Shown here: positions 15,758 to 40,424 of the stretch, piece by piece
Position numbering within the stretch: the first letter of the stretch is position 1
Layout of the letters: the number at the start of each line of letters is the position of its first letter
Source of the DNA: Acidimicrobiales bacterium
GTDB lineage: Bacteria; Actinomycetota; Acidimicrobiia; Acidimicrobiales; Bog-793
Reading direction: 5' to 3'
Length of the DNA stretch: 40,955 bases
Assembly: GCA_035533675.1 (NCBI GenBank)
Contig: DATLTI010000322.1
Coordinates: forward strand, 1-40,955
The notes under the pieces: model-generated
What the model was told of the DNA's origin: nothing
Database searches by the model: none
The model's input: the letters and a program-made list of their open reading frames with translations, nothing else
Made by a program: the position numbers and the translations under genes

Positions 15758-15872
15758 ATCGCGCACGACAAGCACGAACATACCAAGGTGAACCGAGGAA
15801 GACATACTGTCAGCAGGTGACACGTGATGGACGTGAGCGGACTCGAACCGCCAAATTCCACGATGCGAACTT
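15758..15872 (-). repeat. Copy A of the motif-X + tRNA-Ala(CGC) 3'-half-like repeat (degenerate)
   Basis: Plus strand: atcgcgcacgacaag, 56 nt, then ggacgtgagcggactcgaaccgccaaattccacgatgcgaac. Minus strand: GTTCGCATCGTGGAATTTGGCGGTTCGAGTCCGCTCACGTCCA. Confidence 0.7.
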
Positions 15873-16098
15873 GACCCGGAGCACTTCTTGAGGTGGGGCA
15901 ATTTGAAAAATTCCTGATCAGAGTAACAATGCATCTCAGCCAGTCTCACAAAGTCGCACTCGGTTTCACGGAGATCGCGCACGCAAAGCAACTCTTCAAA
16001 AGAAATTATTGATTCAAAAGCATCTTTATTGCTTTACAACACATCTCAACAAACTGAAGCGCGCGCCCGGATCTTCCCACGGATGCGAGACTGCATCG

Positions 16099-16617
16099 AT
16101 GAAGATTCGACCTGCGACCGAAAGAGACGCCGAGGAGATCGCCTCAGTTCACGTTCGATCGTGGCAATCGGCTTATCAAGGACTCATCCCTCAGAGTTAT
16201 CTCGATCAGCTCAATATCGAGCAGCGGAAGACTTCGTGGGAGCGTTATCTGCGAAATACGACCGGGAACCGCGAGGGATGCGTAGTGGCTGAAGAAGACG
16301 AGACGATCATTGGATTCGCTAATTTCGTGCCCTCACGCGATGAAGACAGCGATCCGATGGTGACAGCTGAGCTTGCCTCGATCTATCTATTAGCCGAAAG
16401 ATGGAACCAGGGCATTGGTCGGGCTCTCTTTCAACAAGTGGTCGAATTATGGCGACTTTTCGAATTTCAAGAGGCGACACTATGGGTTCTCAATTCGAAC
16501 ATGCGGGCAATGAACTTCTACGAACGCTTGGGCTGGTTCGTCGACGGCAAAGAAAAAAGTGAGAGTTCTTCTGGCGTTGTGCTCAGTGAATCTCGATATC
16601 GATACAAGATTATTTGA
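16099..16617 (+). CDS. GNAT family N-acetyltransferase
   Basis: ORF 16009..16617, start MKIRPATERDAEEIASVH at 16099. An acetyl-CoA motif is present (WNQGIGRALFQQVV). Confidence 0.85.
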   Translation: MKIRPATERDAEEIASVHVRSWQSAYQGLIPQSYLDQLNIEQRKTSWERYLRNTTGNREGCVVAEEDETIIGFANFVPSRDEDSDPMVTAELASIYLLAERWNQGIGRALFQQVVELWRLFEFQEATLWVLNSNMRAMNFYERLGWFVDGKEKSESSSGVVLSESRYRYKII

Positions 16618-16700
16618 GAATGTGAGACGCTCAAATTGTAAGCAATATCAATGAGGGCATCCATCGAATTCCTTGATCTTCGGTACGCGATGATGAACCT

Positions 16701-17234
16701 GTGCTGATCACCATTCGTTCCGGCGTGCCTTCGGATGGCCCATCCCTTCAGGCGATCGAAAGATTGGCAGGGGAGAAATTCCGGCTAGTCGGTTTGGATC
16801 ACGTTGCCAACGACGAACCACCCTCGGTAGAGAGCCTCGCGAATTACGCTGATGCTGGGCGCAGCTGGGTGGCGATCGATGAAACTGGGGATCCAATTGG
16901 ATACGTCATCATCGACGAAATTGATGGTAACGCGCACATTTCCCAAATGAGCGTGCACCCGGATTGGCAAGGGCGCGGCGTGGGCCGCATGCTCTTGAGC
17001 CGAGTACAAACTTGGGTGATCGACAACGGCAAGGGTGCTATTACGTTGACCACCTTTGACTTAGTTCCGTGGAATAGGCCGCTCTACGAACACCTTGGAT
17101 TTCGCGTTTTGACCGCCGAGGGCATCGGACCTGAATTGAGTGCGATCCAAACTTCTGAGACAGTTCGAGGGCTTACTCCCAGTGAAAGAGTATGTATGCG
17201 TCTTGATGTCCACGCTGGTTCAAAGGCACCTTGA
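16701..17234 (+). CDS. GNAT family N-acetyltransferase
   Basis: 177 aa with a GTG start. The motif is HPDWQGRGVGRMLLSRV. Confidence 0.85.
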   Translation: MLITIRSGVPSDGPSLQAIERLAGEKFRLVGLDHVANDEPPSVESLANYADAGRSWVAIDETGDPIGYVIIDEIDGNAHISQMSVHPDWQGRGVGRMLLSRVQTWVIDNGKGAITLTTFDLVPWNRPLYEHLGFRVLTAEGIGPELSAIQTSETVRGLTPSERVCMRLDVHAGSKAP

Positions 17235-17305
17235 ACCAGCAAAATCGTTGCACGAGGAATTTCCCACCACCGCAAGGCAAACGTGACCGATGTCATAATG
17301 AGGCA

Positions 17306-18091
17306 ATGGAAGAGGTTCTTTTTGGCGGTGTGGCCAACGCCGGAAAAGTCACACGGCACGGTCCGTTCGTCCTGCGTCCGAGCAATCTTTACTCTGCTTC
17401 GATCCACGCGTTTCTAAAAACACTCCGAAAAACCGGGTTTGAAGGTGCTTCATTGCCCATCGAAATCCAAGAGGATGGTCGCGAACGTCTGGTATTCATT
17501 GAGGGCGAAGTACCCATCCCGCCATACGCCACATGGGCCCAATCTGACGATGTCTTAGCATCGGTGACGCGGCTGATCTCCGATTTTCACCTGGCGTCAG
17601 CAACCGTGGATCGTTCAATGGAAACTTGGAATCATGAGATGTCGGATGCTTCCGGAGGTTCGATCATCTGCCATAACGATGTTTGCTTGGAGAACGTCAT
17701 TTCCCGAGATGGCAAAGCCATCGCGCTCATCGACTTCGACTTTGCTGCGCCCGGGCGGCCGACATATGACCTCGCGGCATTCGCGCGTATGTGCGTCCCT
17801 ATTGACGATGACATCAGCTCCGAACGCCTCGGTTGGTTGGAATCAGATCGTTCAGGTCGGCTCAGGCTCGTTGCCGATGTATACGGTCTCGATGCAAAAG
17901 GACGAAGAGAGCTCCTCGAATTTCTTGATGGCGCCATCCAAGGTGGTGGAACCTTTGTGCAACGACGCGCCAATGCCGGTGATACAAACTTCATTCAAAT
18001 GCTGGAAGAGATGGGCGGTATGGAGCGCTATGAACGACGTCGACGCTGGTGGATCGAGAGCAGAGAGCAGTTCCTCGCAGCGCTCTCGTAG
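17306..18091 (+). CDS. Phosphotransferase enzyme family protein (APH/kinase-like)
   Basis: ORF 17231..18091; the ATG at 17306 follows GAGG. Catalytic motifs are ICHNDVCLENV (HxDxxxxN) and LIDFDFA. Confidence 0.8.
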   Translation: MEEVLFGGVANAGKVTRHGPFVLRPSNLYSASIHAFLKTLRKTGFEGASLPIEIQEDGRERLVFIEGEVPIPPYATWAQSDDVLASVTRLISDFHLASATVDRSMETWNHEMSDASGGSIICHNDVCLENVISRDGKAIALIDFDFAAPGRPTYDLAAFARMCVPIDDDISSERLGWLESDRSGRLRLVADVYGLDAKGRRELLEFLDGAIQGGGTFVQRRANAGDTNFIQMLEEMGGMERYERRRRWWIESREQFLAALS

Positions 18092-18224
18092 AAAGCTTGC
18101 GGCAATCTCTTTCAATCTGGCGAAATCAATAAGCACGGATGATTGCCGCGCGACAGAGGGGAACCCTAATGAACCCCACTTTCGAATCCTCTGGTCAGTC
18201 AACACATGTCGATAAGGGAGATCA

Positions 18225-18341
18225 ATCGCGCACGACGAGCCCGAATTTGTCACAGAATTGCGAGGAAAACGCACTACGAGGGGAAACGTGGTGGAGGTGA
18301 GCGGACTCGAACCGCCGACTTCCACGTTGCGAAAATGGATT
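18225..18341 (-). repeat. Copy B of the motif-X + tRNA-Ala(CGC) 3'-half-like repeat (best preserved, encodes the CCA end)
   Basis: Minus strand: AATCCATTTTCGCAACGTGGAAGTCGGCGGTTCGAGTCCGCTCACCTCCACCA. It contains the anticodon loop TTCGCAA, the T-arm GGCGG-TTCGAGT-CCGCT, and the acceptor 3' strand CACCTCC with U70. Positions 18291-18341 are 51/51 identical to 26506-26556. Motif X (atcgcgcacgacgag) lies 53 nt away. Confidence 0.8.
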
Positions 18342-18455
18342 GGAGAACTCTGATACCAGCGCTCTTGAGAGATCACCGCGGCGACGGAAGGCAATCCGCG
18401 ACATTGGGTGGCGCCCTAACGAAACATCGGCCGAATCGAACGCTGTCTGCGTTGA

Positions 18456-18773
18456 TCAGGTATCAGGGTTTGGCGCGCCAAGCTCCCGTATAACCAAGAC
18501 GTGGTGAGCGAGCCGAAGGAGCCAACAGGCGGCGACCAGTTGACCGATATTCTTGGCCACCTCGTCGAAATTCCCTATCCTGACAAGATCTTCTCTCCCC
18601 AAGTTATTGCGATCAAGTTCGAGCTTGTTGCGAACTACCTCCCAGATCGCCGATGTGCTATCAACGGATGCGTACGACCGCCCAGGCACTGCTAGAAGGC
18701 CTTCCGCACGGTACCGGTGGCCCAGAGCGCCCCATAATCGCCGAAGTATGTCGTGCCCTCCAACAAGTGCCAC
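18456..18773 (-). CDS. Hypothetical protein (GTG start 3 nt after the upstream stop)
   Basis: 105-aa ORF, in frame with 18777..19256 and separated from it by a single TGA plus one codon. No recognisable family. Confidence 0.4.
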   Translation of the reverse strand: MALVGGHDILRRLWGALGHRYRAEGLLAVPGRSYASVDSTSAIWEVVRNKLELDRNNLGREDLVRIGNFDEVAKNIGQLVAACWLLRLAHHVLVIRELGAPNPDT

Positions 18774-18776
18774 ATC

Positions 18777-19256
18777 TCATTCATCGAGTTCTGCTAATAC
18801 CTCACCGATAATTTTTGTTGTCTGGTGGGCAGGGAGCGGATCCCCGCCTTCCGCTTGCGCAACCTCAGCCGAGAAAGCTTCGACGGCATGAACTCCGCCG
18901 ACAAGCACATGCCGTAGTGCTTCGCCGCTCGCTTGGGGATCTTCGAGTGCCTCCACTGCCCGGGCGACCGCATGGTCGGGAGAGGTTGAGACAGCATGAA
19001 CAACGCTCATTGCTTCTTCTCGACCGGTCGCTGTTGAAACGACCGACTCTCGACCAGGGTTTTGCTGAAGGTCCCACTCGACTAGCGCTTCGTCGTATCC
19101 ACCTTCACCTGGATGGAGCAAATGGGTCGCGGGAACCGCGCTCGGCTCAGCATCATCGCCTCCTGAAGACGAACCCGCGACGGCGTCGACTTCGTGATGT
19201 CGGACCGCGCGCACAGGAACGACCAAGCTTCCATCTGCATTACGGACAATGTCCAT
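18777..19256 (-). CDS. Hypothetical acidic protein
   Basis: 159-aa ORF with an AAAGGAG RBS 8 nt upstream of the ATG at 19256. Confidence 0.45.
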   Translation of the reverse strand: MDIVRNADGSLVVPVRAVRHHEVDAVAGSSSGGDDAEPSAVPATHLLHPGEGGYDEALVEWDLQQNPGRESVVSTATGREEAMSVVHAVSTSPDHAVARAVEALEDPQASGEALRHVLVGGVHAVEAFSAEVAQAEGGDPLPAHQTTKIIGEVLAELDE

Positions 19257-19796
19257 ATTGCGACGCTCCTTTGAGTGGCCCCATATAAGGGGCTATGAGA
19301 ATCACTATACCCGCAGTGACTTTCGATGAGTAGCGCTAAGAGGCCCCAACCACACACCGCCAAGGCTCCATACCGAAGTACGAGGGCCCGTGGTTCTCTA
19401 TCGTCGATTTCACGCCAGGAAAGAACTGCGTCGAGCGCTCTCGATGAATCGCAGATCTACGTTCGGAGCGCTTGTGACGAATCCTGATAAGAAGATGCAT
19501 TCATCAGAGTCGCGATCTGTCTGAACCATTGCGAATGAGTGGGTTGCCTTACGTGTCACCAATCCGCCATGCATTACGACGTGTTTCCGCTTCAATTGTA
19601 GAATGCCTCACGCACGTGCTTTGGTTCTGGAGGTCTTGTCGTTGTCAACAACATGTTCACAACTCTTGCCACCTTTGTATTCACGCGTTAAGAGTCGCCG
19701 CGGGTTTACTGAAGACGTGGCGAATCATTGTGAGTAGGTCGGGCTAGTGCCAACAATGTGGGTCGAGCATCAACTGTGACCCCTGGGAGTATCTGC

Positions 19797-20387
19797 TCAG
19801 CCATCATCCTTGAGCGCTATGCGGAGGTCCTTTCTGGCTCGCTCGATCTGCTTTCGCACTGTTGACTCGGCGATATGGAGCGTGCCCGCAGCATCTTTTG
19901 TCGACATTCCAACGATGAGACAGAGCACAGCACAGCGTCGACGAGCAGCCGGCATCGTCTTCAGTCCCATTTCGATCCCAACATGCAGTGTCGCCTCGTC
20001 GTCGACAGTGGGCGTCGCGTGCTCTTCCACGAGCGGGGGCTTGCGAAATGACGAGCGCCGCGTCAGACGGAAAGCGACGCGGTAGACGTAGCCGGCGGGA
20101 TTGGTGCCACTGCGAACCCGATCCCAGTGAACAAGGGCTCTGGCGAACGCCTCTTGGGCCACATCTTCTGCGCTCGGTCGGCTCGCGCCCGAGAGCTCGA
20201 GCGCTCTCACGAGTCGCGGATAGTGTGCCTTGTACGTCGCGACGAAGTCTTCATCGACGGCGTCGAAATCTACGAGTGCATCACCAAGATCATCTCCTTC
20301 GGAGGAGCTCTCGGCGACGGAGGCTTCGTCCATAATTGCTAGCTGAGCACGTCTCCGGACGTTCGTCGCGTCATCGAACGCGTTCAT
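19797..20387 (-). CDS. ECF-type sigma-70 family RNA polymerase sigma factor
   Basis: ORF 19797..20456. The ATG at 20387 overlaps the upstream stop (ATGA at 20384-20387). Region 2: YKAHYPRLVRALELSGASRPSAEDVAQEAFARALVHWDRV...NPAGYVYRVAFRLTRR. Region 4: MPAARRRCAVLCLIVGMSTKDAAGTLHIAESTVRKQIERARKDL. Confidence 0.85.
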   Translation of the reverse strand: MNAFDDATNVRRRAQLAIMDEASVAESSSEGDDLGDALVDFDAVDEDFVATYKAHYPRLVRALELSGASRPSAEDVAQEAFARALVHWDRVRSGTNPAGYVYRVAFRLTRRSSFRKPPLVEEHATPTVDDEATLHVGIEMGLKTMPAARRRCAVLCLIVGMSTKDAAGTLHIAESTVRKQIERARKDLRIALKDDG

Positions 20388-21499
20388 TTCGAGCTTGTCG
20401 TCGGCTGACCGGCGCTGGGTCCGGTCTGGGATTGACCTCCAATCGGCGCCAAGCACGCTTGAGGTTGCGCGATTGCGTCATCGTCATTGATGGTCGCGGT
20501 GGCGATTGTGTTCCCGGAGCTGTCAAGAGCGGTAACGGCCGCTGGCAGGGGCGTACTACCGTCGTCCGCGAACACGGCCCAGCCACTTACGACGGCCATC
20601 TGTTTTGATATCCCGTCCGAGAAGCTCGCCTGCACGCTGCTCACGTCTGATGCGACGTGGACAGTCAACACCTCGATCGGCGATGCTTCGGAGACGCCGA
20701 CAGCTGAGCTGTCGAGGATCTCGAAGGGTTGACTCGGACCCGAAATGGAGATCGACGGCAACGGCACCGTCACCGCGCCAACTGCGCCGGGATTCGACAC
20801 CTCGACAACCAGTGCTTGACTGGATTCGCATGAGGTGTATATCGGTACGATCCCTGGAGATGAACGAGCCGTGTTCGACGGCATGCTCAGATTTGGCGAA
20901 GCCGCTGATGACGAAGTCGGCGGGGCCAACCCATTCGAGGCGTACGGCTGGGGTACGAAGTTGGGCGTCGTCTCCTGAAACGCTCGCACAGTGACATCGC
21001 CGAACGTTTGGACAAAGAGCTTGATCAACGGACCACTTAAACCAACCGGATAGGTGTTACCGCAGCCCTCGACCGTGCAAAGACCTGGCGCCGGCGGGGT
21101 GGCCGCAATGTTGGCGCCCGACGAGCTCGCTCCCGTGCTGGTGCTCGGAGCGGTCGTTTTCAACCACTCGAGCCCTTTCGGTGCTGGACCGAGCGCGCGG
21201 TGTTGCTTGGTCCAACCCGAGTTGGCGAGTGGGGCTTGGCCGGATTCAGACGGAGGCCCGATCGCGTTGGGCTTGAATGCCGAGGTTGTACTGCTCGTCA
21301 CTCGGGTGATCCCCGCGACACTCGCTCCGGCGAGGGCGAGGAGAATAGAGATGCCCGTGATGACCTTCAACCGACGCTCGCGGTGCCGTCGCGATCGAGC
21401 GACGATCGATCCGAGCGTGGCTGCGGTCGCTTTTCCATCGGCTTCGTCGAGAAGGCTGGAATACTCTGCTCGCTGCGTGTCCTGGTCTTCGAAGGTCAT
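20384..21499 (-). CDS. Single-pass membrane protein upstream of, and coupled to, the ECF sigma gene (candidate non-canonical anti-sigma or sensor)
   Basis: 371 aa. About 45 cytoplasmic residues, then the TM VITGISILLALAGASVAGI, then an extracytoplasmic domain of about 300 aa rich in Ser/Thr/Pro. ATGA overlaps at both ends. No HxxxCxxC motif. Confidence 0.6.
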   Translation of the reverse strand: MTFEDQDTQRAEYSSLLDEADGKATAATLGSIVARSRRHRERRLKVITGISILLALAGASVAGITRVTSSTTSAFKPNAIGPPSESGQAPLANSGWTKQHRALGPAPKGLEWLKTTAPSTSTGASSSGANIAATPPAPGLCTVEGCGNTYPVGLSGPLIKLFVQTFGDVTVRAFQETTPNFVPQPYASNGLAPPTSSSAASPNLSMPSNTARSSPGIVPIYTSCESSQALVVEVSNPGAVGAVTVPLPSISISGPSQPFEILDSSAVGVSEASPIEVLTVHVASDVSSVQASFSDGISKQMAVVSGWAVFADDGSTPLPAAVTALDSSGNTIATATINDDDAIAQPQACLAPIGGQSQTGPSAGQPTTSSK

Positions 21500-21972
21500 C
21501 GCGTCAGCGCCCTAGCTCGTACACAACTTCTACTTGAACCGACAGTCGTTCGGCTCCCTACTCGACCGAAATCGCGGATTTCGCCGCCGTCTGCGGAAGC
21601 GTCGAAGCTCTCGGACAATGAAGGGGCTGTCATCTGCTCCTCGTCGGTGATCTTCATGACCGGGCAATGTCGTGGAAAGTGACGGTTGCGTGTGCCGCTG
21701 ACCCTGGACTGCTCGCAACTGCCGCGCCATTCGCCAGCAGAATCTCCGAGCATTGCTCCGCTCGCGTTGAGCCTGCTGCGATTAGGGCTGCGGGCCTCCA
21801 TCAAGGACTCTGTTCGGTGGTGAATCATGTGCTTTCGGCTTTCTAGACAGTCGGAGAACTTCTCCTTCACTACTAAAAAGCCCCGAGTGACCCTGTTCGC
21901 GTACAGGTACCTGAGCATTCTGATCAAGATGCCAGTCGGTGACGGCGGCGAGAGGATCGCCGCACCGAACAT
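21496..21972 (-). CDS. Doubtful ORF, ATGA-coupled to the membrane protein gene
   Basis: 158-aa ORF whose composition is not protein-like (Arg/Ser-rich) and which has no convincing RBS. Only the stop/start overlap at 21496-21499 supports it. Confidence 0.2.
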   Translation of the reverse strand: MFGAAILSPPSPTGILIRMLRYLYANRVTRGFLVVKEKFSDCLESRKHMIHHRTESLMEARSPNRSRLNASGAMLGDSAGEWRGSCEQSRVSGTRNRHFPRHCPVMKITDEEQMTAPSLSESFDASADGGEIRDFGRVGSRTTVGSSRSCVRARALTR

Positions 21973-21976
21973 CGGC

Positions 21977-22228
21977 TCATCGAGGATGGAACGTCATGCC
22001 ATGACAACGGCTGGGCGCGTCCAGAGCCGGCGAGGGAATCATCGTTGGGTTAGAAGGACGATCCCAATCTCCGTTCTCTATCAGTGGCTTCGCGCCCGTA
22101 GAGCGTCCGAGTAGTAGTTTCAATGTTGCGGGGCACGCCTGGCACGCTGTGACGTGCGTCACTCTGGTGGAGGTTCGTGGGTCGTATTCGAACTTCACTG
22201 ACCTAAAGAAACGCGTCAACGCGCTCAC
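21977..22228 (-). CDS. Doubtful 83-aa ORF carrying an HxxxCxxC (zf-HC2 anti-sigma-like) motif; it overlaps repeat copy F
   Basis: GTG start at 22228. The peptide is FEYDPRTSTRVTHVTACQACPATL. The same DNA is a degenerate member of the D/E/F repeat family, so the motif may be fortuitous. Confidence 0.25.
   Translation of the reverse strand: MSALTRFFRSVKFEYDPRTSTRVTHVTACQACPATLKLLLGRSTGAKPLIENGDWDRPSNPTMIPSPALDAPSRCHGMTFHPR
22089..22198 (-). repeat. Copy F of the motif-X + tRNA-like 3'-end repeat (degenerate, D/E subtype)
   Basis: Plus strand: ttcgcgcccgtagagcgtccgag, 65 nt to ggaggt, then tggtggaggttcgtgggtcgtattcgaacttcac. Confidence 0.6.
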
Positions 22229-22248
22229 ATCTGACTCGTCACATCACG

Positions 22249-22274
22249 AACGATAAGTGAAATAACGCAGTTCC
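22249..22274 (-). promoter_or_regulatory. ECF-type promoter candidate GGAAC-N17-CGTT
   Basis: Minus strand: GGAAC(22274-22270)-TGCGTTATTTCACTTAT-CGTT(22252-22249), 20 nt upstream of the GTG at 22228. It overlaps a 7-bp hairpin (AACGCAG/CTGCGTT, 22264-22286) that could instead terminate the giant gene. Confidence 0.45.
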
Positions 22275-22303
22275 TGTACCTGCGTTGCTCCGGATAAGCG
22301 CCG

Positions 22304-25300
22304 TCAGGCTACCCCAACGATCGATGCGCGGGGGATGACACGACCCGTCGAGATGGGGCCATATCGCCGAGCATCGCCGAAGGCGAATACTTCGCCGTTC
22401 GCGTCGACGAGCCAGTAGCCCTTGCCGTCTGGAGTCGTTACAACTCCAGAGATCTGGCGATGCTTCTTCGCAGGGGTTGAGCCGAAGAAGCTCGCGTCGC
22501 CGTACGCAGACACCCCGCCGTTCACGTCGACGAGCCAGTAGCCCTTGCCGTCTGGCGTTCTCGCGATCGCGTCGATCGGCGCTGACGGGCGGAGACCGCT
22601 CGATTGAAGCGAGCCGTAGAAGCTCGCGTCGCCGAACGGGTAGATGCCACCCGTCGAGTCGACGAGCCAGTAGCCCTTACCGTCTGGCGTCGTCGCGATC
22701 GCGACGACCGTCGCGAGCGGCGCTGTTGTGAGCGAGCCGTAGAAGCTCGCGTCGCCGAAGGCGAACACGCCACCTACTCGTGTGACGAGCCAGTAACCGC
22801 GTCGATCTGGAAGCGCTGCGATCCCGGCAATCGGGTCCATGGGACGAAGGTCACTCGTCGGTAGCGAGCCATAGAATCGGGCATTGCCGAGACGGTGCAC
22901 CGCACCGTTGGCACCGGCGAGCAGCAGGTGAGCGCCTCCGAGGTAATGGCTCGGGACGACGAACACCGTGCCGACAAGCTGTCCGAGGTTCGGCGCGCTC
23001 TTGCGAGTGACCGTCACGGTGGTGCACGATCCGCGACCGCTCGGCGGACTCTGATGAAATGCTCGGCGTACGCCGCGATCGTGGGCATCCCACCACAGCA
23101 CCTTGAGCCCCCTCGGCAGCCCACAGAGCGTGACGCTCACCCGGGAAAACGCGCTTCCCGGAAGGATGGAGAGGTCGTAGTACGTACCACCGGTCGCGAT
23201 TGCCGGAATCGGGTTGCTCAGATACTTCCCGGCGGCGAGGGTCCCCTTACCCGTGCCTTCGGCGCGGACAGAGCCTCGGACACCCCCTCTGCCGATCGAA
23301 ATGGTCACGGTTTTCCTCGGTGAACTCGACGTCGCCTGCTTGTAGCTGTCGAGCGCGGCGCCAACAGGTACAACCTCGTTCGAGGAAGCCACCGCGCCTG
23401 TCCCGATCAGGGTGGTCGCAGCAACGCGGAAGGTGTAGACGTCGCCAGCGGCGAGACCGCCGATCGTCACCGTGATCGTCGTCACGACGACTTTTTGGCC
23501 AGCGGTCGAAGTCGTCAGGTCGAACGGGACAACGGCGTACGAGATCACCGGGCTGCCCCCGTCGATGCTCGGCGGATCCCAGCTCACGACCGCACGGTCC
23601 ACGAGGGACTCGCCCGAGGTCGCGAGGGCTTGCACGTCAATCGGGGCACTGGGCACGCTGCCATAGCCGAACTGATCTGCCGACGAGGTCACCGAGGTGC
23701 CGTTGGCCGTCGTGACCGTGAGGTTCACGGTCCCGGTGCCGGCCGGGCTCGTTGCGGTGATCGAGGTAGCTGAGACCACGACAACGCTCGTGGCCGCGGT
23801 TCCGCCGAAGGAGACGGTCGCGCCCGAGGCGAAGTTCGTCCCGGTGATCGTGACGCCCGTCCCACCGCTCGTTGTCCCGGCGTCGGGCGAGATCGCGGTC
23901 ACGGTCGGAGCTCCGTAGGAGAACAGGTCCGCCCCTGAGGGCGGGGAGGGTCCGTTGCTCGTCGAGACGGTCACGTCGACCGTCCCGGTGCCGGCTGAGC
24001 TTGTCGCGGTGACCGCAGTAGCAGAGACGACAACAACGCTCGTCGCTCTGATCGAACCGAAGAACACGGTCGCGCCCGAGGCGAAGTTCGTCCCGGTGAT
24101 CGTGACGGCCGTCCCCCCGTTCGCTGGCCCGGCATCGGGCGAGACCGCGGTCACCGTCGGACCGACGCTGCCGTAGGTGAAGAGGTCCGTCGCCGAGATT
24201 GCCGAAGTGCCGTCGTTTGTCGTCACCGTGACCTGGACGGTGCCGCTCCCCGCCGGGGGGCTGGTCGCGGTTATGAAAGTGGACGAGTCAAAGACAACGT
24301 TCGTCGCTCTGATCGAACCGAAGAGAACGATCAACCCCGAGGCGAAGTTCGTCCCGGTGATCGTGACGGCCGTGCCGCCCGAGGTCGACCCGGCGTCGGG
24401 AAAGACCGCGGTCACCGTCGGTGCCCCATAGGAGAAAAGGTCCGCCCCCGAGGTCACCGAGGGGCCGTTGGCCGTCGTGACCGTGACGTTGACGGTCCCG
24501 GTGCCGGCCGGGCTCGTTGCGGTGATCGAGGCGGCAGAGACGACGACAACGCGCGTCGCCGCGGTTCCGCCGAAGGAGACCGTCGCGCCCGAGGCGAAGT
24601 TCGTCCCGGTGATCGTGACGGCCGTGCCGCCCGAGGTCGACCCGGCGTCGGGAGAGACCGCGGTCACCGTCGGTGCCCCATAGGAGAAGAGGTCCGCCCC
24701 CGAGGTCACCGAGGTGCCGTTGCTCGTCGTGACCGTGACGTCGACCGTCCCGGTGCCGGCCGGACTCGTCGCGCTGATCGAGGTGGACGAGTAGACAGTG
24801 ACGCCCGTCGCCGCGGTTGCGCCGAAGGCGACGATCATGCCCGAGGCGAAGTTCGTCCCGGTGATCGTGACGGCCGTCCCGCCCGAGGTCGACCCGGCGT
24901 CGGGAGAGACGGCGCTCACCCCAGGGATAGTGCCGTAGAGGAAAAGGTCGCTCCCCGAGACCGCCGAGGTGCCGTTGCTCGTCGTGACCGTGACGTCAAC
25001 CGTCCCCGAGGAGCCAGCCGGGCTCTTCGCGGTTACCGAGGTCGACGAGACGACGGTGACGCTCGTCGCTGCTCTCCCGCCGAAGGACACCGTTGCGCCC
25101 GAGGCGAAGTTCGTCCCGGTGATCGTGACGCTCGTGCCGCCCGAGGTCGACCCGGCGTCGGGAGAGACGGCGCTCACGGTCGGTGGCGCCGTGCCGTAGA
25201 GGAAAAGGTCGCTCCCCGAGGTCACCGAGGTGCCGTTGCTCGTCGTGACCGTGACGTCGACCGTCCCGGTGCTGGCCGGACTCGTCGCGCTGATCGAGGT

Positions 25301-30675: not shown

Positions 30676-31259
30676 TGTGCTCCTTCTCTTCACCCCTGTT
30701 TATCGCATCCCGACTTCGACAACTACACCCCCCAAATAGTCCAACGAAATTCGCAGTGTTCATCTTTTGGGTCTTCCATGGAATTAGGCCTAGGCGCTCG
30801 ACCTCAAGGGTGTTATCAGGCATTCAATTTTCTGCGGCACTATGCGGTCCTTGCCTGGGATCCATTCCGTAACTTTCGATTAATGGCTCTTCGGATCTCA
30901 ATGGGGTATGACCTTCGCGAGTAGGACCCAATGTGATTTTTCGGCATAGACAAGTGACCGGATCCGATAGTTGCGAAAGCTAGTGCAACAAAATGCTGCA
31001 CGCTCGACGCGTTTGATGAGAATGACAGCCTCGGTCGGACCGTTGCTGACATGGGCCCTGTGCCAGACGGCAATCCCTTCTCATCGAACCTTGCGACGTG
31101 CGGGCGAGACCAAATCTTCAAAGCCTTCGTACTCGTCTTCAACGAAACGGACTCGAAGTCGCAGTGGACGGCGCGTCCCGAGATGAAAGGGAGTCTGCTC
31201 ACAATTACCAAAACCAAGAGCGAAGTTCGTCCGCGAGACTGTCCCCATCGAACTTGCCA

Positions 31260-33662: not shown

Positions 33663-33713
33663 ACCCCTAATGTTTATCTCACCGCACAACCGAACCATTC
33701 CAAGGTCAGTAGC

Positions 33714-33738
33714 CTGTCGTCTGTTAACCAGATGACAG
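33714..33738. promoter_or_regulatory. Imperfect palindrome centred on GTTAAC in the divergent intergenic region
   Basis: ctgtcgtctgttaaccagatgacag has arms that match 11/13 with one gap. Confidence 0.3.
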
Positions 33739-33796
33739 ATCGAGTAGGGATTCACTGTGCTCGCAGATCGAGCAGTAGACATCGAGGGGGTAGGCG

Positions 33797-34951
33797 ATGG
33801 GTTCCGATGACGACGGAGAGGGCAAAGAAGCACCTCAGGACGAGGACCTACCTCCTAATATTCTGATTCTCCCCGCATCCGTAGAGCGAGAACTCGATGA
33901 ATCCGACGAGTCGCTGGGCGCTCTCGGGCGACCATTCGATCATCGAGCGCCGTTTTTCCTCGGTCTATTTGGCGCGCTAGGAGTGGCCGTTGCCTACGTC
34001 ATCGCGCGGGGCATTGCCGATATCACGACGGTCCTCGTCATTATCGGACTGGCCCTATTCATCGCGATTGGCCTCAACCCGATCCTCGAGTTCCTCATCC
34101 ACCACGGTCGTTCGCGGGGATTCGCGGTCGGTGTGGTCACCCTTGGTTTCCTCGCTGTCATCGCGGTGTTCGTTTTCGCCGCGGTATCGCCCATATCTCA
34201 CGAGATTCAAAGCCTCGTAAAAAACTATCCCCACTACAAAGCCAATACCGCGGCGGGAAAGGGTTGGGCGGGAAAGCTGGCGGTCAAGCTGCATCTGACG
34301 GGTTATCTCAAGGGTAAAACGAAAATCAAAATCCCCGTCGGCGGTGTGCTCGGAGCAGGAAAGCTACTTCTTTCGCTCGGCGTCGCGACGATCAGTGTCG
34401 CTGCGCTAACAATCTACTTTTTGATTGCGCTTCCCGGTGTAAAAAAACTCTGGCTCTCACTCATTCCTCGCAGCCGCCGCGAGCGCACCGCACTTTTGAC
34501 CGATGAGGTTTTCAGCCGTGTTGGCGGCTTCATGCTTGGGAACCTTTTGACGTCACTGATCGCGGGAATTGGAACCTACATCTGGCTTCTGATTTTCGGC
34601 GTTCCCTATGCGATTCTGCTCGCGCTCATCGTCGCACTCTTCGATCTCATCCCAATGGTGGGATCCACGGTTGCCGGCATCATTGTGGCGCTCGTTGCGC
34701 TGACCAAAGGTATCCCGATCGGTGTCGAGACACTTGCGTTTTACATCGTCTATCGCTACCTCGAGGACTATCTTCTGAACCCGCGTGTGATGAAACATAC
34801 GGTCAAAGTAACGCCGGGATTGGTCATCATTGCCACTTTGATCGGCGGCACTCTCCTCGGCCTAATTGGAGCATTAGTCGCCATTCCCGTCGCGGCGACG
34901 ATCCATCTGCTTCTCGAAGAGGTCGCCATTCCTCGTCAGAATCAGCGCTAG
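33797..34951 (+). CDS. AI-2E family transporter (PerM/UPF0118)
   Basis: 384 aa with 8 TM. ...IGLNPILEFLIHHGRSRGFAVGVV... and the C-terminal block LIPMVGSTVAGIIVALVAL...LEDYLLNPRVM...LIGGTLLGLIGALVAIP are typical. Confidence 0.9.
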   Translation: MGSDDDGEGKEAPQDEDLPPNILILPASVERELDESDESLGALGRPFDHRAPFFLGLFGALGVAVAYVIARGIADITTVLVIIGLALFIAIGLNPILEFLIHHGRSRGFAVGVVTLGFLAVIAVFVFAAVSPISHEIQSLVKNYPHYKANTAAGKGWAGKLAVKLHLTGYLKGKTKIKIPVGGVLGAGKLLLSLGVATISVAALTIYFLIALPGVKKLWLSLIPRSRRERTALLTDEVFSRVGGFMLGNLLTSLIAGIGTYIWLLIFGVPYAILLALIVALFDLIPMVGSTVAGIIVALVALTKGIPIGVETLAFYIVYRYLEDYLLNPRVMKHTVKVTPGLVIIATLIGGTLLGLIGALVAIPVAATIHLLLEEVAIPRQNQR

Positions 34952-35027
34952 GTGAAAGGTGCCAGCGCGAAGACGACGCTCTGGGCAGCCCACTCTTGGT
35001 CGAGTCCAGACCTGTGGTGTATGACGA

Positions 35028-35340
35028 CTACCACACTAACCGTGAATCTCGGTTCTCACTGACGGCCTCCAGCTCCTCCGTCGTGCCCACCTCCTTCGCG
35101 TCGATGGCACCACCGGCGAAGGCCCTCGCGCAAGGATCATCGCAGTCGTGCTGTTCGGCAAGCACGGCACCGACGAGGCGGATGCAGGCTGCGCGGTTCG
35201 GGAAGATCCCGACGACGTCGGTGCGGCTGCGGATCTCCCGGTTCAGCCGCTCCTGGGGATTGTTGCTCCATATCTGGCGCCAGTGCTCGGGTGGGAACGC
35301 GCTGAACGCCAACAGGTCCCCCCGGCGTCTGTAAGGAGCT
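35028..35340 (-). mobile_element. IS256-family transposase, C-terminal fragment only (about 100 codons)
   Basis: [59 protein letters not shown] is the conserved C-terminal block of IS256/mutator-type transposases. The upstream part of ORF 35028..35669 is unrelated antisense sequence. Confidence 0.8.
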
Positions 35341-35364
35341 CGGCGAGGCGGGGAACTGGCTCTA

Positions 35365-36320
35365 GAGCTGGTCGACGACGCGACAAGTCCCGACCTGGAC
35401 AAGTGATCAGGCCTTGACGAGCCCCGAGCGGCCGCGATCGGCGGTGGTCCTGTCGGTTGCGAACTTGCCCAGACCTGCGTGCGCTTTGGTGTCAGGGTTA
35501 CGCTCGCCGAGCCCGGCGAGTATCTCCTCGCCCACAAAGAGCACACCATCGCCGAGGTGCTCGCCGACATGCTGCGTGCCGACGGGTTACTTTGCGGTTC
35601 GGTGCACGCGTCCACGCGGTCCATCGCACTACTCGAGGCGCGGAAGTTGCGTTCGATGACGGAACACACTCGCGGTCGTGCGGATCATCGTTGCCACCGG
35701 CCAGCACCCAAACAGCGACGGACTCGATCTCGAACGACTCGGTATCATATTGATAGACAAGAGGCTTACAACCAACCCTGATGACTGGGTTGTCGGGCAG
35801 AACAACTATGGGCGGCCGGTGACGTTACTGGCGTCGCTCCCTACACCCACCTCGCCAACTACCAGGCGCGAATCACCACCGCCAACCTGCTCGGGGGATC
35901 TACCGTCGGAGATCTCAGAGCCGTGCCTCGGGTCGTGTATACCGATCCCCCCGTCGCTGCGGTCGGTCTAACGGCCAAACACGCAGCCCAGCTGGCATGG
36001 ACGTGCAGACTGCCTCGACCGAGTTCGGCACCACAGTCCGCTCCGCCACCGGTGCCAGTCCAGTTGGCCGATTGTTCCTCGTTGCCGACCGGATGAAGGC
36101 GGTGCTTGTCGGCACCGCTGGTATCGGCGGCCACTGTGACGAATGCCTCGGTGAGTTGGCCCTTTCCATTCGTGCCAAGATTCGTGCCAAGATTCCTCTC
36201 AAGATCCTGGCGGATGTAATGCACGCCTTCCCGACGTCAGCGAGGTCTTGGAGTCGCCGCTGCGCGAGCTCGCTCAAGGCGCAACATGACCAATCCAAAC
36301 TGATGTCGATCTCTGGATAG
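35365..36320 (+). pseudogene. Pyridine nucleotide-disulfide oxidoreductase (mercuric/mycothione/dihydrolipoamide reductase-like), 5'-truncated and multiply frameshifted
   Basis: The pieces lie in three frames. The first is [52 protein letters not shown] (NAD Rossmann). The second is IVATGQHPNSDGLDLERLGI. The third is ...[18 protein letters not shown]... followed by the dimerisation-domain tail ...AFPTSA. The N-terminal FAD domain is missing where the IS256 remnant abuts. There is a 12-bp tandem duplication attcgtgccaag x2 (IRAKIRAK) near 36170-36195. Confidence 0.75.
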
Positions 36321-36476
36321 ATCGAAGGATTGAACATATCCGAGTGCGTTGGCGCGACTGGGAGAGCCGGTATTCGGGGCTCCTCAACCGCTTGCCTCAT
36401 CCGGGCGCTTTGGGTCTTGAGATTCGGCCAGCACCGACTGCGGTACAGTGCTGCCAACGGCAAGTTAGGAGCGAAC

Positions 36477-36695
36477 ATGGCTGTGGAGCGGACCGAACCG
36501 AGCGTGGCGACACGAGCAGAAGATGAAAAAGAATCCGCTGTTCCGGCAGGCGCAGATCGTACGCCTACTTCCGAGGAAGAGGAAGCCGCTGAAAGCGCTC
36601 AGCTAGACCAGGAAACAAAAGAGTCCGTGAGCAAGCATTACAAAGAGATGGCTGAGCTTGGCGCTGATGTGGAGGGCGAAGGGCACATCCCGTAG
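36477..36695 (+). CDS. Small acidic hypothetical protein
   Basis: ORF 36330..36695. The ATG at 36477 follows AGGAG. 72 aa, Glu-rich. Confidence 0.5.
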   Translation: MAVERTEPSVATRAEDEKESAVPAGADRTPTSEEEEAAESAQLDQETKESVSKHYKEMAELGADVEGEGHIP

Positions 36696-37256
36696 TCAAA
36701 GGCCTTCCCAGTCAACAAGCGGGAGGGCTCAAGTAGCGTCGCTATTCACCGAGTACCGGTTGTAGGTCCCAGACGTGCTCTTGAGTTTGTTCAAGCAAAG
36801 GACGAAGGGCTTCGGCGACGTCCGGCAAGACCGATATCGTTCGCTTGAGAGAAACGCTCGCTGTACCGTTCCAGCTGATCTCGTTCGAGCCGCAGGTCCT
36901 CATCCAATGCCTCGCGAGAGCTGTTGGTTGGGGGCATTGGCGAGAGCACGAACGACTCATTGTGAGCTGACGCGAAGCGACCCGCCAGCCTAACGCAGCG
37001 TTTTTCACATCGGGATTGGCTCGGGAATGTCTGGTGTGGGCGGGGGCTGAGGAAGCGTCGGTTCGTCTGGCGGAATGGTCATACTTGGACGCTACTGGCA
37101 ACCAACCAGACCTTCGCCTCATTTACATCCTGACCTGCTCGTATGGCTCCGTCAACAATCACTCAGGTGCCTCTGATACCTCTGGCGAGTGTGTAGGGTG
37201 CGGGTATGGAAATGTGACGACGTCGAGAAGTGGGCGCGGGAGAGGTGGAGAATCAA

Positions 37257-37562
37257 ATGACGGAGCACGTCCGGATAGCGAATCCGACACCGCTGCAACA
37301 GCAAAGGCGAGTCTGCGACGAGTGCGGTCGTCCGCTCGCGGACACGACCGATGCTGCCGGCACCCCTTACCGCGCCTGCGAAGCCCTTTTGGGAGAGATT
37401 GAGGCCGGGAAACGATGGAATGACGAGAGTTTGGACAGGCAGGCGGAGACCGACGAGCCTGAGGCGGAATCGCCCGATGAGTTGCCGGGAGAGGGTGCTG
37501 ATCAGGATCAGCCGGGTGTAGTTGTTCCGCATGCAGTCCCTAGCGATTCTCTCGGCGGCTAG
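37257..37562 (+). CDS. Hypothetical acidic protein with a CxxC...C segment
   Basis: ORF 37230..37562. The ATG at 37257 follows GGTGGAG. The N-terminus is MTEHVRIANPTPLQQQRRVCDECGRPL. Confidence 0.4.
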   Translation: MTEHVRIANPTPLQQQRRVCDECGRPLADTTDAAGTPYRACEALLGEIEAGKRWNDESLDRQAETDEPEAESPDELPGEGADQDQPGVVVPHAVPSDSLGG

Positions 37563-37880
37563 TGCCCTGACCACAAAGGTTCGCGCGCCTTGGTCGAAGC
37601 CGAAATGGCTACCCGTTGCGTGGACAGCTTGCTCGACAGTGCCACGCGGTGACCAGGGTCAGATCTTCCGAGTCTCAGGCGCGTCGGAGGGAATCGCTTG
37701 CCTCGAGCCGGTGTTGGTGTCCTCCAGGCGGCGCGTGCTGCTGAACGACCCCACCGGCGCTGACGTTCGGAGCGGATGCGGGCCCGTTCCTTTCGCTGTG
37801 CGGCGATGACGTCGGGGTGCTTCGCGTTGGCATTGCGCCGCCATTTGGACTGAAACGGCCACAAATATTTTGGTGCACAA

Positions 37881-38005
37881 TTTGGCCCGTTTCGTCGCGC
37901 CCGTAGAGCGCCCGAGGAATAATCACCGCCGGCTCGATAAGCCTCGCACATGCTCTTACCTGGTCTTCCTCAATGGAGGTGAGCGGATTCGAACCGCCGG
38001 CGTCC
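37881..38005 (-). repeat. Copy D of the motif-X + tRNA-like 3'-end repeat
   Basis: Plus strand: tttggcccgtttcgtcgcgcccgtagagcgcccgagg, 66 nt from gag to ggaggt, then tggaggtgagcggattcgaaccgccggcgtcc. Confidence 0.7.
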
Positions 38006-38514
38006 ATTAACTCATTATCGAGCTGTAGAAAACGCTCCTGTACCAATGTACGAGCGACCGGCAACGGGCCGACCAACCGCGATTCTTGTTGCGGTCTAGC
38101 GCTCATTGCGAGAAAGAGGCGCTCTTAAGGGCTGATCCGATTAAGTATCTGTAGCCATTCGGCCAACTGTTTTGGATCCGGTCTAGGCGCCTCTCTGCGT
38201 GCCGAAGCCCCGATCTCATGAAGAAGTATGGCTATCGCTGTGCCCCGCTCTGTATGGCCATCGCCTAGATCGAACCGCGCCTCAACAGCCCGAAAAAAAT
38301 TTCACCGAAGGGTTCATCTCAATGAACTCGCTCAGCGATACGACGATGGAGATCCGGCTGAAGGCGACGGACAACGACATGAAGTAATCCATGTCTCCGA
38401 CCTGGGATCCGTGGCTGTTGAGTAACCATGCATAAGTCGTCACTCTAGGCTTGAGCACGTGATGAGTTCACAGCTCCATTCGCAAATCTTTGGTCTCATC
38501 GGGGCGTATTAATT

Positions 38515-39228
38515 ATGTGCGGTCGCTTCACTCTCACCGAGAGCCGTTACGACCTCGAGAACTTCTTCGACGTCAAGCCAGATCATGTCCAATTGATGAA
38601 CGGACATATCAATCGAGCGACAACATTCCCCCATCGATCCGAATACCAGGTGCATCAATTGGGAAAGATGGCGAAAGACAACTCGACCTCTACCGTTGGG
38701 GTCTCATACCATCGTGGGTGGAAAACCTCTCAAGCTTCCAATCGACCACAAGCAACGCCGGGGCAGAGTCAGTTGCCGACAGGCCGATGTACCGAACTGC
38801 CTTTCGTAGTCGGCGCCTTTTGATTCCGGCCGAGGCTTTCTATGAGTGGAACCGTGCAGATCCGAAGAACAAACAGCCATACCTCTTCAAACGTTCGGAT
38901 GGCGCGCCGAGGGCCTTCCGCGGGACTCTACGAGTTTTGGAGGCACCCCGAGGGCGAATGGCCCACCTCCTGCACCATCATTACGACCTCAGCTAATGCA
39001 AACATGCCCATCCACGATCGAATACCGGTGATCCTAGAATCCGATGTGTGGGACCGATGGCTTGATCCAGAACCTCAAGATCGAGACGAACTTGAAGCGA
39101 TGCTGTCATCAGGCACACCAGGGACGCTGTTGCATTATCCTGTTGATACGCGTATGGGTTCAACCAAGAACGAAGATCCCTCGCTCATTGAGCCTGTTGA
39201 AGTGGCTGTCGCACAAACATTGTTGTAG
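38515..39228 (+). pseudogene. SOS-response-associated peptidase (SRAP/YedK, DUF159) with two compensating frameshifts
   Basis: It starts with the hallmark MCGRF (frame of 38515). The middle part NIPPSIRIPG...LDLYRWGLIPSW...NAGAESVADRPMYRTAF...LLIPAEAFYEW...KQPYLF lies in the frame of ORF 38490. The end GLYEFWRHPEGEWPTSCTIITTSANANMPIHDRIPVILE..WDRWLDP is back in the first frame (ORF 38842..39228). Confidence 0.8.
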
Positions 39229-39282
39229 GTGCGTGATATCCAGTGCTGAGTATTTCAGCTCGATTTGGGGGATTATCAAGAT

Positions 39283-39582
39283 ATGGGTGAAGCCGACGAC
39301 AAACCACGCAAACCAAGACATCCTCTGCAAAAGGTGCCTAAGTATCAGGAGCCCAACTCATTGCCCATCCCAGGGCTAGGTGGCGGAAGCATGTTTGGAC
39401 TACGGCGAGGTCGGTTCGGCCATGGGTCCGACGGCGAGAAGCACCACCGACCAGCGTGGCCAGGAAGAGTCTTTCTTTGGCTGCTGGGAATGCGCCCCAA
39501 AGACCCTGAAGCAGAGGAACCACGTACTCGGGAACATGAACCAGAAGAGTCCACTGAAGAGGGCACAATCCCCCATCTCTAG
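39283..39582 (+). CDS. Hypothetical charged protein
   Basis: ORF 39265..39582 with an ATG at 39283. No recognisable family. Confidence 0.3.
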   Translation: MGEADDKPRKPRHPLQKVPKYQEPNSLPIPGLGGGSMFGLRRGRFGHGSDGEKHHRPAWPGRVFLWLLGMRPKDPEAEEPRTREHEPEESTEEGTIPHL

Positions 39583-39691
39583 GTCTTCCTAGCACTCTTG
39601 TTCGTCCTGGACTCAGTTGACGTCTGCAACACCGCTCAAATCAGAAACCATTCACTCGTTATCAAGCGTGTAGTAAAGAGCTCATGTACCA

Positions 39692-40123
39692 ATGTCCATT
39701 ATGGAGACTGACGGAGTGCGCACACTCTTGTATCTTTTATGGCTCGTCTTTTCGAGAATCTGGCTTGCTTTCGGTTATGCGATTGCCGGCATATGCATGT
39801 TCCTGCTTGTCATCACAGTTCCATTCGGATTCGTGTCATTCGGTCTCGCCGCCTGTGTCCTATGGCCATTTGGAAGAAAGGTAGTAAAGCGGCCCAGCGC
39901 TGGAGCGATGTCAACGATGGAAAACATCCTGTGGTTTGTTCTTGCTGGCCTTTGGATGGCGACCGCTCACCTGTTTATCGGCGTGTTGTTGTGCTTGACG
40001 ATCGTTGGCATCCCACTCGTGCTAGGGAACTTCAAGCTTGCTTCTGTGGCCATTGCCCCACTTGGAAAAGAGATCGTTTCCACCCGAGACCCACGAGCCG
40101 CGATCGACACCATCTCTTTTTAG
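39692..40123 (+). CDS. YccF-domain inner membrane protein
   Basis: 143 aa with two YccF repeats. NILWFVLAGLWMATAHLFIGVLLCLTIVGIPLVLGNFKLASVAIAPLGKEIV is the classic PF03733 pattern. Confidence 0.85.
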   Translation: MSIMETDGVRTLLYLLWLVFSRIWLAFGYAIAGICMFLLVITVPFGFVSFGLAACVLWPFGRKVVKRPSAGAMSTMENILWFVLAGLWMATAHLFIGVLLCLTIVGIPLVLGNFKLASVAIAPLGKEIVSTRDPRAAIDTISF

Positions 40124-40300
40124 ACTCAGAGCCCTCCTGGCACCTTCTGGCGGCGGAGAAACTCATTTGCTATCCGCTTTGGTGCTCGCGATAACCTTGC
40201 CTCGTCGATAAGTGTTTCTAGACGAAATTTGGATATTCGATCGAGTCAAGCATGCACGGCGCTGAAGTCATCAAGTGCGGAGTTGTGGATGACAGACCAA

Positions 40301-40424
40301 TTTGGCCCGTTCCGTCGCGCCCGTAGAGCTCCCGGAGGATAATTCCAACGAAGAAGTACCTCTCAGCATATGCTCTGACCTGGGTGCTTTTGGTGGAGGT
40401 GAGGGGTACGTACCCGAACCGCGC
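40301..40424 (-). repeat. Copy E of the motif-X + tRNA-like 3'-end repeat (T-arm disrupted, CCA end present)
   Basis: Plus strand: tttggcccgttccgtcgcgcccgtagagctcccgga, 66 nt, then tggtggaggtgaggggtacgtacccgaaccgcgc. Confidence 0.7.

Follow-up and report, generated by a model that had tools for sequence, protein, structure and literature searches.

Co-oriented tRNA-Ala(CGC) 3′-half repeats as probable attachment-site junctions in a flexible island of an Acidimicrobiales genome

Introduction

A stretch of 40,955 nucleotides from an Acidimicrobiales bacterium (GTDB lineage Acidimicrobiia; Acidimicrobiales; Bog-793)—positions 1 to 40,955 of contig DATLTI010000322.1 in GenBank assembly GCA_035533675.1, analysed at its full length and hereafter called the window—contains six short repeats, copies A to F, that are the 3′ part of a genuine tRNA-Ala(CGC) gene, with E and F as weak matches. 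Each copy is probably an attachment-site (att) junction that arose when an element integrated into the 3′ half of tRNA-Ala(CGC) in an Acidimicrobiia-like host. Across the class, this tRNA gene is a hot spot for integration by tyrosine and serine recombinases, and the array in the window now consists of decayed or recombinase-less elements with accessory genes, all five of its segments being without a working recombinase.

Partial tRNA genes at the ends of islands are a standard by-product of integration (PMC9897764). An initial annotation, made from the letters of the window, had offered two readings of the repeats—a ‘graveyard’ of integration scars or a novel tRNA-derived dispersed element—and had supposed that no array so dense and so uniform in orientation had been described. 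Here, we weigh these readings and their rivals against evidence from the window and from the same locus in other Acidimicrobiia genomes.

Materials & Methods

Copies were compared with positions 32–73 (anticodon loop to discriminator base) of real Acidimicrobiia tRNA-Ala(CGC) genes, which served as the identity reference, and with an nhmmer profile of 37 distinct tRNA-Ala(CGC) genes. A genome collection was scanned with a T-arm/acceptor 25-mer, which yielded at least 119 stretches, almost all from Acidimicrobiia metagenome-assembled genomes (MAGs). Stretches from other genomes were 8-kb tiles; these and other contigs are referred to by L numbers. A profile of the 5′ arm was built on five junctions from L023, L062, L068 and L080. 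The orientation of copies on the same contig was compared in L020, L028, L045, L061, L080, three consecutive tiles of CAVUFH010000003.1, CAVYKV010000003.1, CAVWMT010000002.1 and JBJKRZ010000001.1.

Results

Six tRNA-Ala(CGC) 3′ halves on one strand

All six units lie on the minus strand of the window, where the initial annotation had placed them. Copies B (18292–18336) and C (26507–26550) are identical to the reference at 42 of 42 positions (nhmmer E = 4.6e-13 and 7.8e-13, respectively); copy A (15828–15873), which runs from the anticodon loop to the discriminator base (nhmmer model positions 29–74), agrees at 38 of 42 (E = 5.4e-10); and copy D (37974–38006), which comprises the T-arm and the acceptor 3′ strand, agrees at 30 of 33 positions within the same interval (E = 2.7e-7). 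On these identities and E-values, A, B, C and D are therefore four solid tRNA halves, in keeping with the identification first proposed.

A decayed T-arm and ACCTCCACCA are all that remains of the tRNA part in the other two copies. Copy E (40394–40422) keeps its acceptor 3′ strand and CCA intact and shows 23/29 identity in a gapped alignment, with an E-value of 0.47 that is by itself not significant; copy F (22168–22193) is badly decayed, with ACCTCCACCA alone intact, 18/26 identity in a gapped alignment and no nhmmer match. Because the tRNA part is too weak alone, E and F, the latter through its arm, were assigned to the set on the homology of their flanks to D: D and E are 73% identical over 121 nt (E = 4e-14), and the arms of E and F are 66% identical over 107 nt (E = 2e-6).

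No copy is itself a gene, as had been suspected. A search with the 37-gene profile found no tRNA 5′ half anywhere in the window, ARAGORN found neither a tRNA nor a tmRNA gene there and no Rfam family matched the window at its gathering threshold. The intact tRNA-Ala(CGC) gene that the initial annotation had hoped to reach by such searches is thus not in the window; with a relaxed Rfam threshold, B, C and D gave weak partial matches, no more, to the tmRNA model (tRNA/tmRNA clan). By these searches, no copy amounts to a full cloverleaf or to a tmRNA that encodes a tag.

An integration hot spot across the class

Among the matches listed, ARAGORN identified most of the 25-mer stretches as intact tRNA-Ala(CGC) genes, and the 114 listed matches with enough flank to be classed comprise 76 intact tRNA-Ala genes and 38 fragments. 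The fragments that were read are 3′ halves starting at TTCGCAA, the anticodon loop. Copies on the same contig proved to be co-oriented in 10 of 10 comparisons (among the matches listed), and the fragment lies 3′ of the intact gene in all three cases with both on the contig (L028, L045 and L088/L077). The last of these is a clean single island with the same junction anatomy, in which an intact tRNA and an integrase precede 8.6 kb of cargo, with a fragment on its far side.

Recombinase genes occur within 2.5 kb 3′ of the tRNA gene or its fragments, nearly all convergent with it. Those in L009, L022, L033 and L088 are tyrosine integrases and those in L018, L039, L065, L070, L111 and L114 large serine recombinases; both classes were confirmed by Pfam (Phage_integrase for the former, and Resolvase, Recombinase and Zn_ribbon_recom for the latter). 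With two recombinase classes beside tRNA-Ala(CGC) across MAGs, the gene is therefore a class-wide integration hot spot, and this, together with the shared orientation of the copies, supports the view of the array as a series of integration scars.

The same comparisons bear on the other original proposal, namely that the copies are a dispersed tRNA-derived repeat—akin to short interspersed nuclear elements, miniature inverted-repeat transposable elements (MITEs) or repetitive extragenic palindromes (REPs)—or functional tRNA-like RNAs, in either case independent of integration. The units are indeed short, present in multiple copies and accompanied by a conserved flanking motif, and a minus-strand open reading frame (ORF) can be drawn through each copy. 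However, they have neither terminal inverted repeats at their ends nor target duplications and, with one orientation and a tie to the tRNA-Ala locus, do not fit MITE- or REP-like elements, which have such inverted repeats or form a palindrome and lie dispersed in both orientations. Orientation is single both here and in the comparisons elsewhere; the 5′ limit of a fragment is always the anticodon loop or a point 3′ of it; and wherever the gene is visible, copies lie only 3′ of it. The T-arms of E and F are broken, which, with the negative Rfam result, also speaks against a functional RNA. Pfam is negative for the ORFs, and the reading frames through the tRNA part differ between A and B, so a conserved peptide was ruled out. 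We regard this explanation as extremely improbable and have dropped the idea of a novel dispersed element.

Conserved arms and motif X

A short motif, X, had been noted beside every copy except C and had been taken, together with its spacer, for the decayed 3′ ends of related recombinase genes. The motif itself stands: written as TCGCGCMCGWMRAG, it has five matches, all on one strand and beside A, B, F, D and E, at about 53–66 nt from the tRNA-like end, where about 0.04 would be expected by chance. X is a tandem direct-repeat pair about 60 nt 3′ of the tRNA end, does not look like a gene end and makes up the outermost conserved portion of the 3′ (P′-type) arm. Its form is GGGCGC-N5-GGGCGCG in D, E and F, where the repeats are 11–12 bp apart, and CGTGC-N4-CGTGCGCGAT in A and B, where they are 9 bp apart, a spacing of about one helical turn.

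Two families of 3′ arm, all on the minus strand, can be told apart on this basis, junction C being separate and of serine-recombinase type. Type 1 comprises the arm of A (15758–15827), with X at its far end (15758–15776), and that of B (18225–18291), with X at 18225–18243; counting the tRNA part, the two are 73% identical over 128 nt. A motif search located a second type-1 core, CGTGCGCGAT, in the 5′ (P-type) arm of A (15974–15983, minus strand), bringing the matches in the window to three, all on the minus strand, for 0.32 expected. As the core occurs at A, at B and in A’s 5′ arm, the segment between B and A has matching arms. Type 2 comprises the arms of F (22089–22167; X = GGACGC-TCTAC-GGGCGCG), which is homologous to that of E; of D (37878–37973), with CCAGGTAAG at about +11 and X = GGGCGC-TCTAC-GGGCGCG at about +60; and of E (40298–40393), with CCCAGGTCAG at +11 and X = GGGAGC-TCTAC-GGGCGCG. 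The homology that D shares with E ends abruptly at ...GGGCCAAATTG, at the same base in both.

Judged by alignment, these arms are homologous across genomes. The form GGGCGC-N4-6-GGGCGCG stands at +61 in L034, L068 and L080, matching its placement in D, E and F, and GGGCGCG triple repeats with an 11-bp period lie about 115–150 nt 5′ of fragments in L023, L035, L062, L068 and both L080 junctions; the 5′ arm of L075 has a double rather than a triple repeat. Over about 170 nt, 5′ arms are 71–89% identical between genomes. The 5′-arm profile matches the 5′ arm of C (26550–26705, minus strand; E = 5.6e-10), which contains a decayed GGGCGCG triple repeat and is homologous to the arm in four other Acidimicrobiia MAGs, and the repeat segment of the profile aligns weakly to X of E, D and F.

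A ATCCATTT-type 5′ junction is present in segments F-to-B and D-to-C of the window and also in L023, L062, L068 and L080, with a close variant, CGATCCAAT, in L035; of the two junctions of this type in the window, the arm profile detects the wider 5′ arm at C only, not at B. A further short motif, CNGGTC[AG], occurs at +10 to +14 from the tRNA end in 11 of 75 intact genes and 8 of 37 fragments; in 5 of 37 fragments it stands 27 nt ahead of the anticodon loop (all among the matches listed), the background rate being 0.0017 per position. It is present at E, with variants in the same place at A, B, D and F.

Lambda-type attP sites have arm-type sites for the integrase, and integration into the anticodon loop of tRNA genes was reportedly described by Williams in 2002 (NAR 30:866). 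The junctions resemble such systems in that the anticodon loop and the tRNA 3′ end bound their block of identity and in that each arm has direct-repeat motifs, about one helical turn apart and at a distance of tens to about 150 bp from the core, whereas the repeat sequences themselves (GGGCGCG and CGTGCGCGAT) are new here. Because one motif recurs in both arms with repeats 9–12 bp apart, as in lambda-type attP, X most likely represents putative arm-type binding sites of a tyrosine integrase; the binding of a protein there would follow from this comparison.

Other origins were considered. Blastx and tblastx gave nothing for the flanks beyond the 125-nt unit common to D and E, and tblastn hits with integrase tails were noise; with no translated similarity, and with the tandem repeat recurring in the opposite att arm, the reading of X plus spacer as recombinase gene ends was given up. 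A phage origin was likewise rejected: the 25-mer has no match in IMG/VR, and the arm repeat has one chance match, within what we take to be a phage structural (capsid-like) gene.

A serine-recombinase remnant beside copy C

The C-terminal remnant of a large serine recombinase, about 55 aa long (26313–26477, plus strand), abuts copy C and is convergent with it; the initial annotation had recognised a recombinase remnant at this place. Tblastn aligns it at 45% identity over 55 aa (E = 2e-9) with the C-terminus of an ORF in L100 that carries a Zn_ribbon_recom domain, and a full-length relative in L111 combines Resolvase, Recombinase and Zn_ribbon_recom domains. Full recombinase genes adjoin intact tRNAs in L111 and L012, the same arrangement as that of the remnant beside C.

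On this similarity, junction C appears to come from a large-serine-recombinase element; the enzyme class is not that of the arms of the other five copies, which are of tyrosine-integrase type. The initial proposal of related recombinases is supported as to a remnant at C and not supported as to their being of one kind. Examination of the flanks by blastx, tblastx and tblastn with integrase tails, a check recommended at the outset, revealed no recombinase remnants beside A, B, D, E or F, leaving the one at C as the sole example, and neither gene calls nor Pfam found a complete recombinase within the window.

These arms also tell against an origin in place, in which a single att region would have undergone local duplication and unequal crossing-over, its copies diverging and genes being shuffled later, instead of separate integrations. 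Such an origin could account for flank homology that extends past the tRNA part in A/B and in D/E, and repeats in the same orientation favour unequal recombination. Yet arm pairs in the window are 66–73% identical, as diverged as arms between genomes; three arm types coexist, one of serine-recombinase type; the segments are unlike in cargo and GC content; and the arms have homologs in other MAGs, with which the type-2 and C arms appear to interleave. In-place duplication is accordingly very unlikely.

Segments without recombinases

Between the copies lie five segments, named here after the copies that bound them. Segment B-to-A (15874–18224; 2.35 kb) encodes two GNAT proteins and an APH protein and has the type-1 motif at both ends. 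Segment F-to-B (18337–22088; 3.75 kb) encodes proteins of 158, 371 and 159 aa and an ECF sigma factor, its small ORFs being without a Pfam match. Segment C-to-F (22194–26506; 4.3 kb) starts with the serine-recombinase tail; it further holds a riboswitch-like element, a 74-aa ORF and the gene of a TIG-repeat adhesin. Segment D-to-C (26706–37877; 11.2 kb) carries genes for Amt, LPG_synthase_TM and an AI-2E transporter, an ISL3 remnant and a Mutator transposase fragment. Segment E-to-D (38007–40297; 2.3 kb) encodes SRAP, YccF and small ORFs and has a type-2 3′ arm.

In both F-to-B and D-to-C, the 3′ arm is of type 2 and the 5′ junction of ATCCATTT type. No recombinase is present in B-to-A, F-to-B or E-to-D, and no site-specific recombinase in D-to-C. 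GC content is 62–69% in the adhesin segment versus 50–60% elsewhere. Like cis-mobilisable elements (CIMEs), segments B-to-A, F-to-B and E-to-D have att sites with no recombination or transfer genes between them; B-to-A has matching arm motifs, and D-to-C has arms of a single family.

Short segments recur in other genomes. A 2.4-kb segment with one UbiA gene lies in L080 between two junctions with near-identical 5′ arms, and copies are 2.0 kb apart in L020, 2.5 kb in L061 and 1.3 kb in L045. No conserved gene was found adjoining the 5′ arms in the other genomes, where the cargo is unrelated. On the minus strand of L080 (5296–5508) and of L034 (1484–1721), two tRNA-Ala ends lie about 130 nt apart, forming a cargo-less att-to-att unit made up solely of a short 5′ arm and an X-bearing 3′ arm of type 2.

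Such units raise the possibility, to which we give limited credence, that the segments are recombinase-less cassettes (cis-mobilisable or ‘hitcher’ units) with complete P and P′ arms and variable cargo, which an integrase encoded elsewhere would insert and remove, so that tRNA-Ala(CGC) would act as an integron-like platform in the Acidimicrobiia. This would suit the lack of a recombinase in five out of five window segments, three of them just 2.3–3.8 kb long, and the occurrence of short recombinase-less segments elsewhere (in L080, and by distance in L020, L061 and L045). It would also suit the conservation of arms across genomes (71–89%) beside unrelated cargo, the common 125-nt unit of D and E with its sharp shared boundary and the units of P′ arm plus P arm, without cargo, between fragments in L080 and L034.

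Several observations pull the other way. No excision product, empty site or presence/absence polymorphism was found, the order being the same in all assemblies of the population, and no cognate integrase with GGGCGCG arm sites was found in the 8-kb tiles, which may miss an integrase. The arms in the window are decayed, B’s 5′ arm being missed by the profile, as dead scars would be, and deletion between repeated att sites also yields short or empty units. Nor are these integron cassettes proper: the window has no integrase gene, and in place of attC-type palindromes its repeats are tRNA halves flanked by direct-repeat arms. The fuller version of this idea, a tRNA-Ala(CGC) cassette platform of small recombinase-less units with GGGCGCG- or CGTGCGCGAT-bearing arms and cargo down to none (130 bp), shuffled by an integrase acting in trans in integron-like fashion through tRNA-half att sites and lambda-type arms, seems to us slightly less probable again.

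Contig end and neighbouring features

All five contigs of the population that were recovered end at 40955. The sole metagenome contig that passes this position, L131, adds 217 nt, with no tRNA there. A DUF3024 gene (40690–40955, minus strand; Pfam E = 4e-24) is cut by the contig end; L131 (Ga0307373_10031540) carries at 153–485 a DUF3024 gene that is 98% identical, followed by unrelated DNA from about window position 40650. L131 and the window have nothing but this gene in common and then diverge, and the gene sits in at least two contexts. A weak, non-significant stretch resembling a tRNA half (GTTCGCACATGCG...CACCTCCAG) lies in L131 within the 150 nt upstream of DUF3024. Positions 29640–29669 and 40656–40685 of the window form a 30-nt inverted repeat, 80% complementary, with one arm exactly at the point of divergence from L131; this could mark a recombination point or one end of a small mobile element.

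A seventh X-like match, at 40789–40808 within the DUF3024 gene (LYWRD), was treated as chance. A reading of X as DUF3024-like codons was discarded: translations of D, E and F match no family, and the 16–20-nt match has a BLAST E-value of 0.1–0.9.

Within segment C-to-F, the adhesin ORF (22304–25954, minus strand) contains 252–261-nt tandem repeats (TIG/fn3 domains) at 23661–25707 on the same strand. In assembly ERZ27256814 the adhesin gene is shorter (717 aa) and has at its 5′ end an opposite-strand 487-aa ORF without a Pfam match. The riboswitch-like element is a full-model match to the c-di-GMP-II-GAG aptamer at 26107–26194 (minus strand; 36.9 bits for a gathering score of 40; E = 0.0011), about 35 nt upstream of the 74-aa ORF that leads into the adhesin gene, and a putative c-di-GMP switch ahead of the adhesin is biologically plausible.

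In segment D-to-C, the ISL3-family C-terminal remnant (30907–31080, minus strand) is 49% identical over 59 aa to a 439-aa ORF of L034, which we take, from its sequence, to be an ISL3-family transposase, and the Mutator-family transposase fragment lies at 35028–35669 (minus strand; Pfam E = 7e-21). Outside the array, positions 12328–12848 share 73–75% DNA identity with 27034–28274, the latter being the Amt ammonium transporter gene of segment D-to-C; the former is therefore a diverged second copy or a fragment of it. Finally, 21-nt tandem repeats (CGACCACAACGACCGTCGCTC) occupy 10031–10100 (plus strand) within ORF 9201–10172, which adjoins an ice-binding-domain gene seen in contig L128.

Discussion

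The explanation that we favour, successive integration into one tRNA gene, draws on the identity and orientation of the repeats, the hot spot in relatives, the homology of arms between genomes and the remnant beside C; from these we infer the order of events and the position of the crossover. An incoming element would bring along a partial tRNA of its own, spanning the 3′ portion from the anticodon loop onwards. With the crossover placed in that loop, the gene would be rebuilt with the element’s 3′ half, and the old 3′ half would end up beyond the element. Repeated integration would give the order intact tRNA, element n, fragment, element n−1, fragment and so on, with everything in the orientation of the gene, and at each internal junction a tRNA 3′ half would stand between the 5′ (P) arm of one element and the 3′ (P′) arm of its neighbour. 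On this order, the intact gene would be expected beyond window position 40955.

Several points weigh against this account. The window contains neither an intact tRNA-Ala(CGC) gene nor a complete recombinase; as the contigs stop at 40955, anchoring at the gene is a prediction for the array of this genome. Copy E lies nearest the predicted tRNA, yet it is more decayed than B and C, which a simple accretion with the oldest copy farthest away does not predict. At the other end, an element-type arm rather than native flank follows A, and the native downstream hairpin CGTTGT...ACAACG, which follows the gene in L016 and L052 and a fragment in L080, L090 and L118, is absent near A, leaving the far end of the array without a visible boundary. 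Five segments out of five without an integrase is much to ascribe to independent loss, and the point at which D and E lose homology, the same base in both, resembles the boundary of a unit more than the outcome of random decay.

Dense arrays in one orientation have been described before, contrary to what the initial annotation had supposed. The ssrA islands of Dehalococcoides (McMurdie et al., 2011; PMC3146451) include more than a dozen repeats within 100 kb, all in one orientation. As in the window, tandem islands lie 3′ of a single small RNA gene and are separated by direct repeats of that gene’s 3′ end, with additional conserved motifs flanking the repeats; as here, too, some segments lack integration genes, and these were proposed to be cis-mobilisable (PMC3146451). 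The Dehalococcoides islands differ in targeting tmRNA, in their 20-bp repeat and in having a single serine recombinase family (DsiB) in many islands, whereas the present array targets tRNA-Ala(CGC), has a repeat of up to 45 nt and implies at least two recombinase classes, with no complete recombinase surviving.

The tycheposon islands of Prochlorococcus (Hackl et al., bioRxiv 10.1101/2020.12.28.424599) offer a second parallel, in that integration is into tRNA genes, a partial tRNA copy alone separates neighbouring elements, partial tRNAs and fragmented integrases of older events are scattered about and the cargo is niche-adaptive. Unlike the segments described here, tycheposons have particular tyrosine recombinases and replication modules as their defining features; the window showed none of these, and host phylum and target tRNA also differ.

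A third likeness is to the accretion of integrative and conjugative elements and CIMEs in Streptococcus thermophilus, where att-flanked DNA without recombination or transfer genes reportedly stands in tandem with integrative elements such as ICESt1 and ICESt3. Those elements are said to target the 3′ end of fda, a protein-coding gene, and their mobility is said to have been shown by experiment, whereas the case in the window is known from sequence alone.

The concept is thus known, and what is new here is the phylum, the target tRNA and the arm motifs. About 25 kb of the contig is a flexible island, with acetyltransferases, a phosphotransferase, an ECF sigma module, a large adhesin and transporters as cargo. 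The concept is an ordinary one and the finding of modest use for Acidimicrobiia genomics: islands of this kind tend to break assemblies, and the conserved arm motifs could be used to delimit them in MAGs. Wider interest is possible only in the recurring short, recombinase-less segments with conserved arms.

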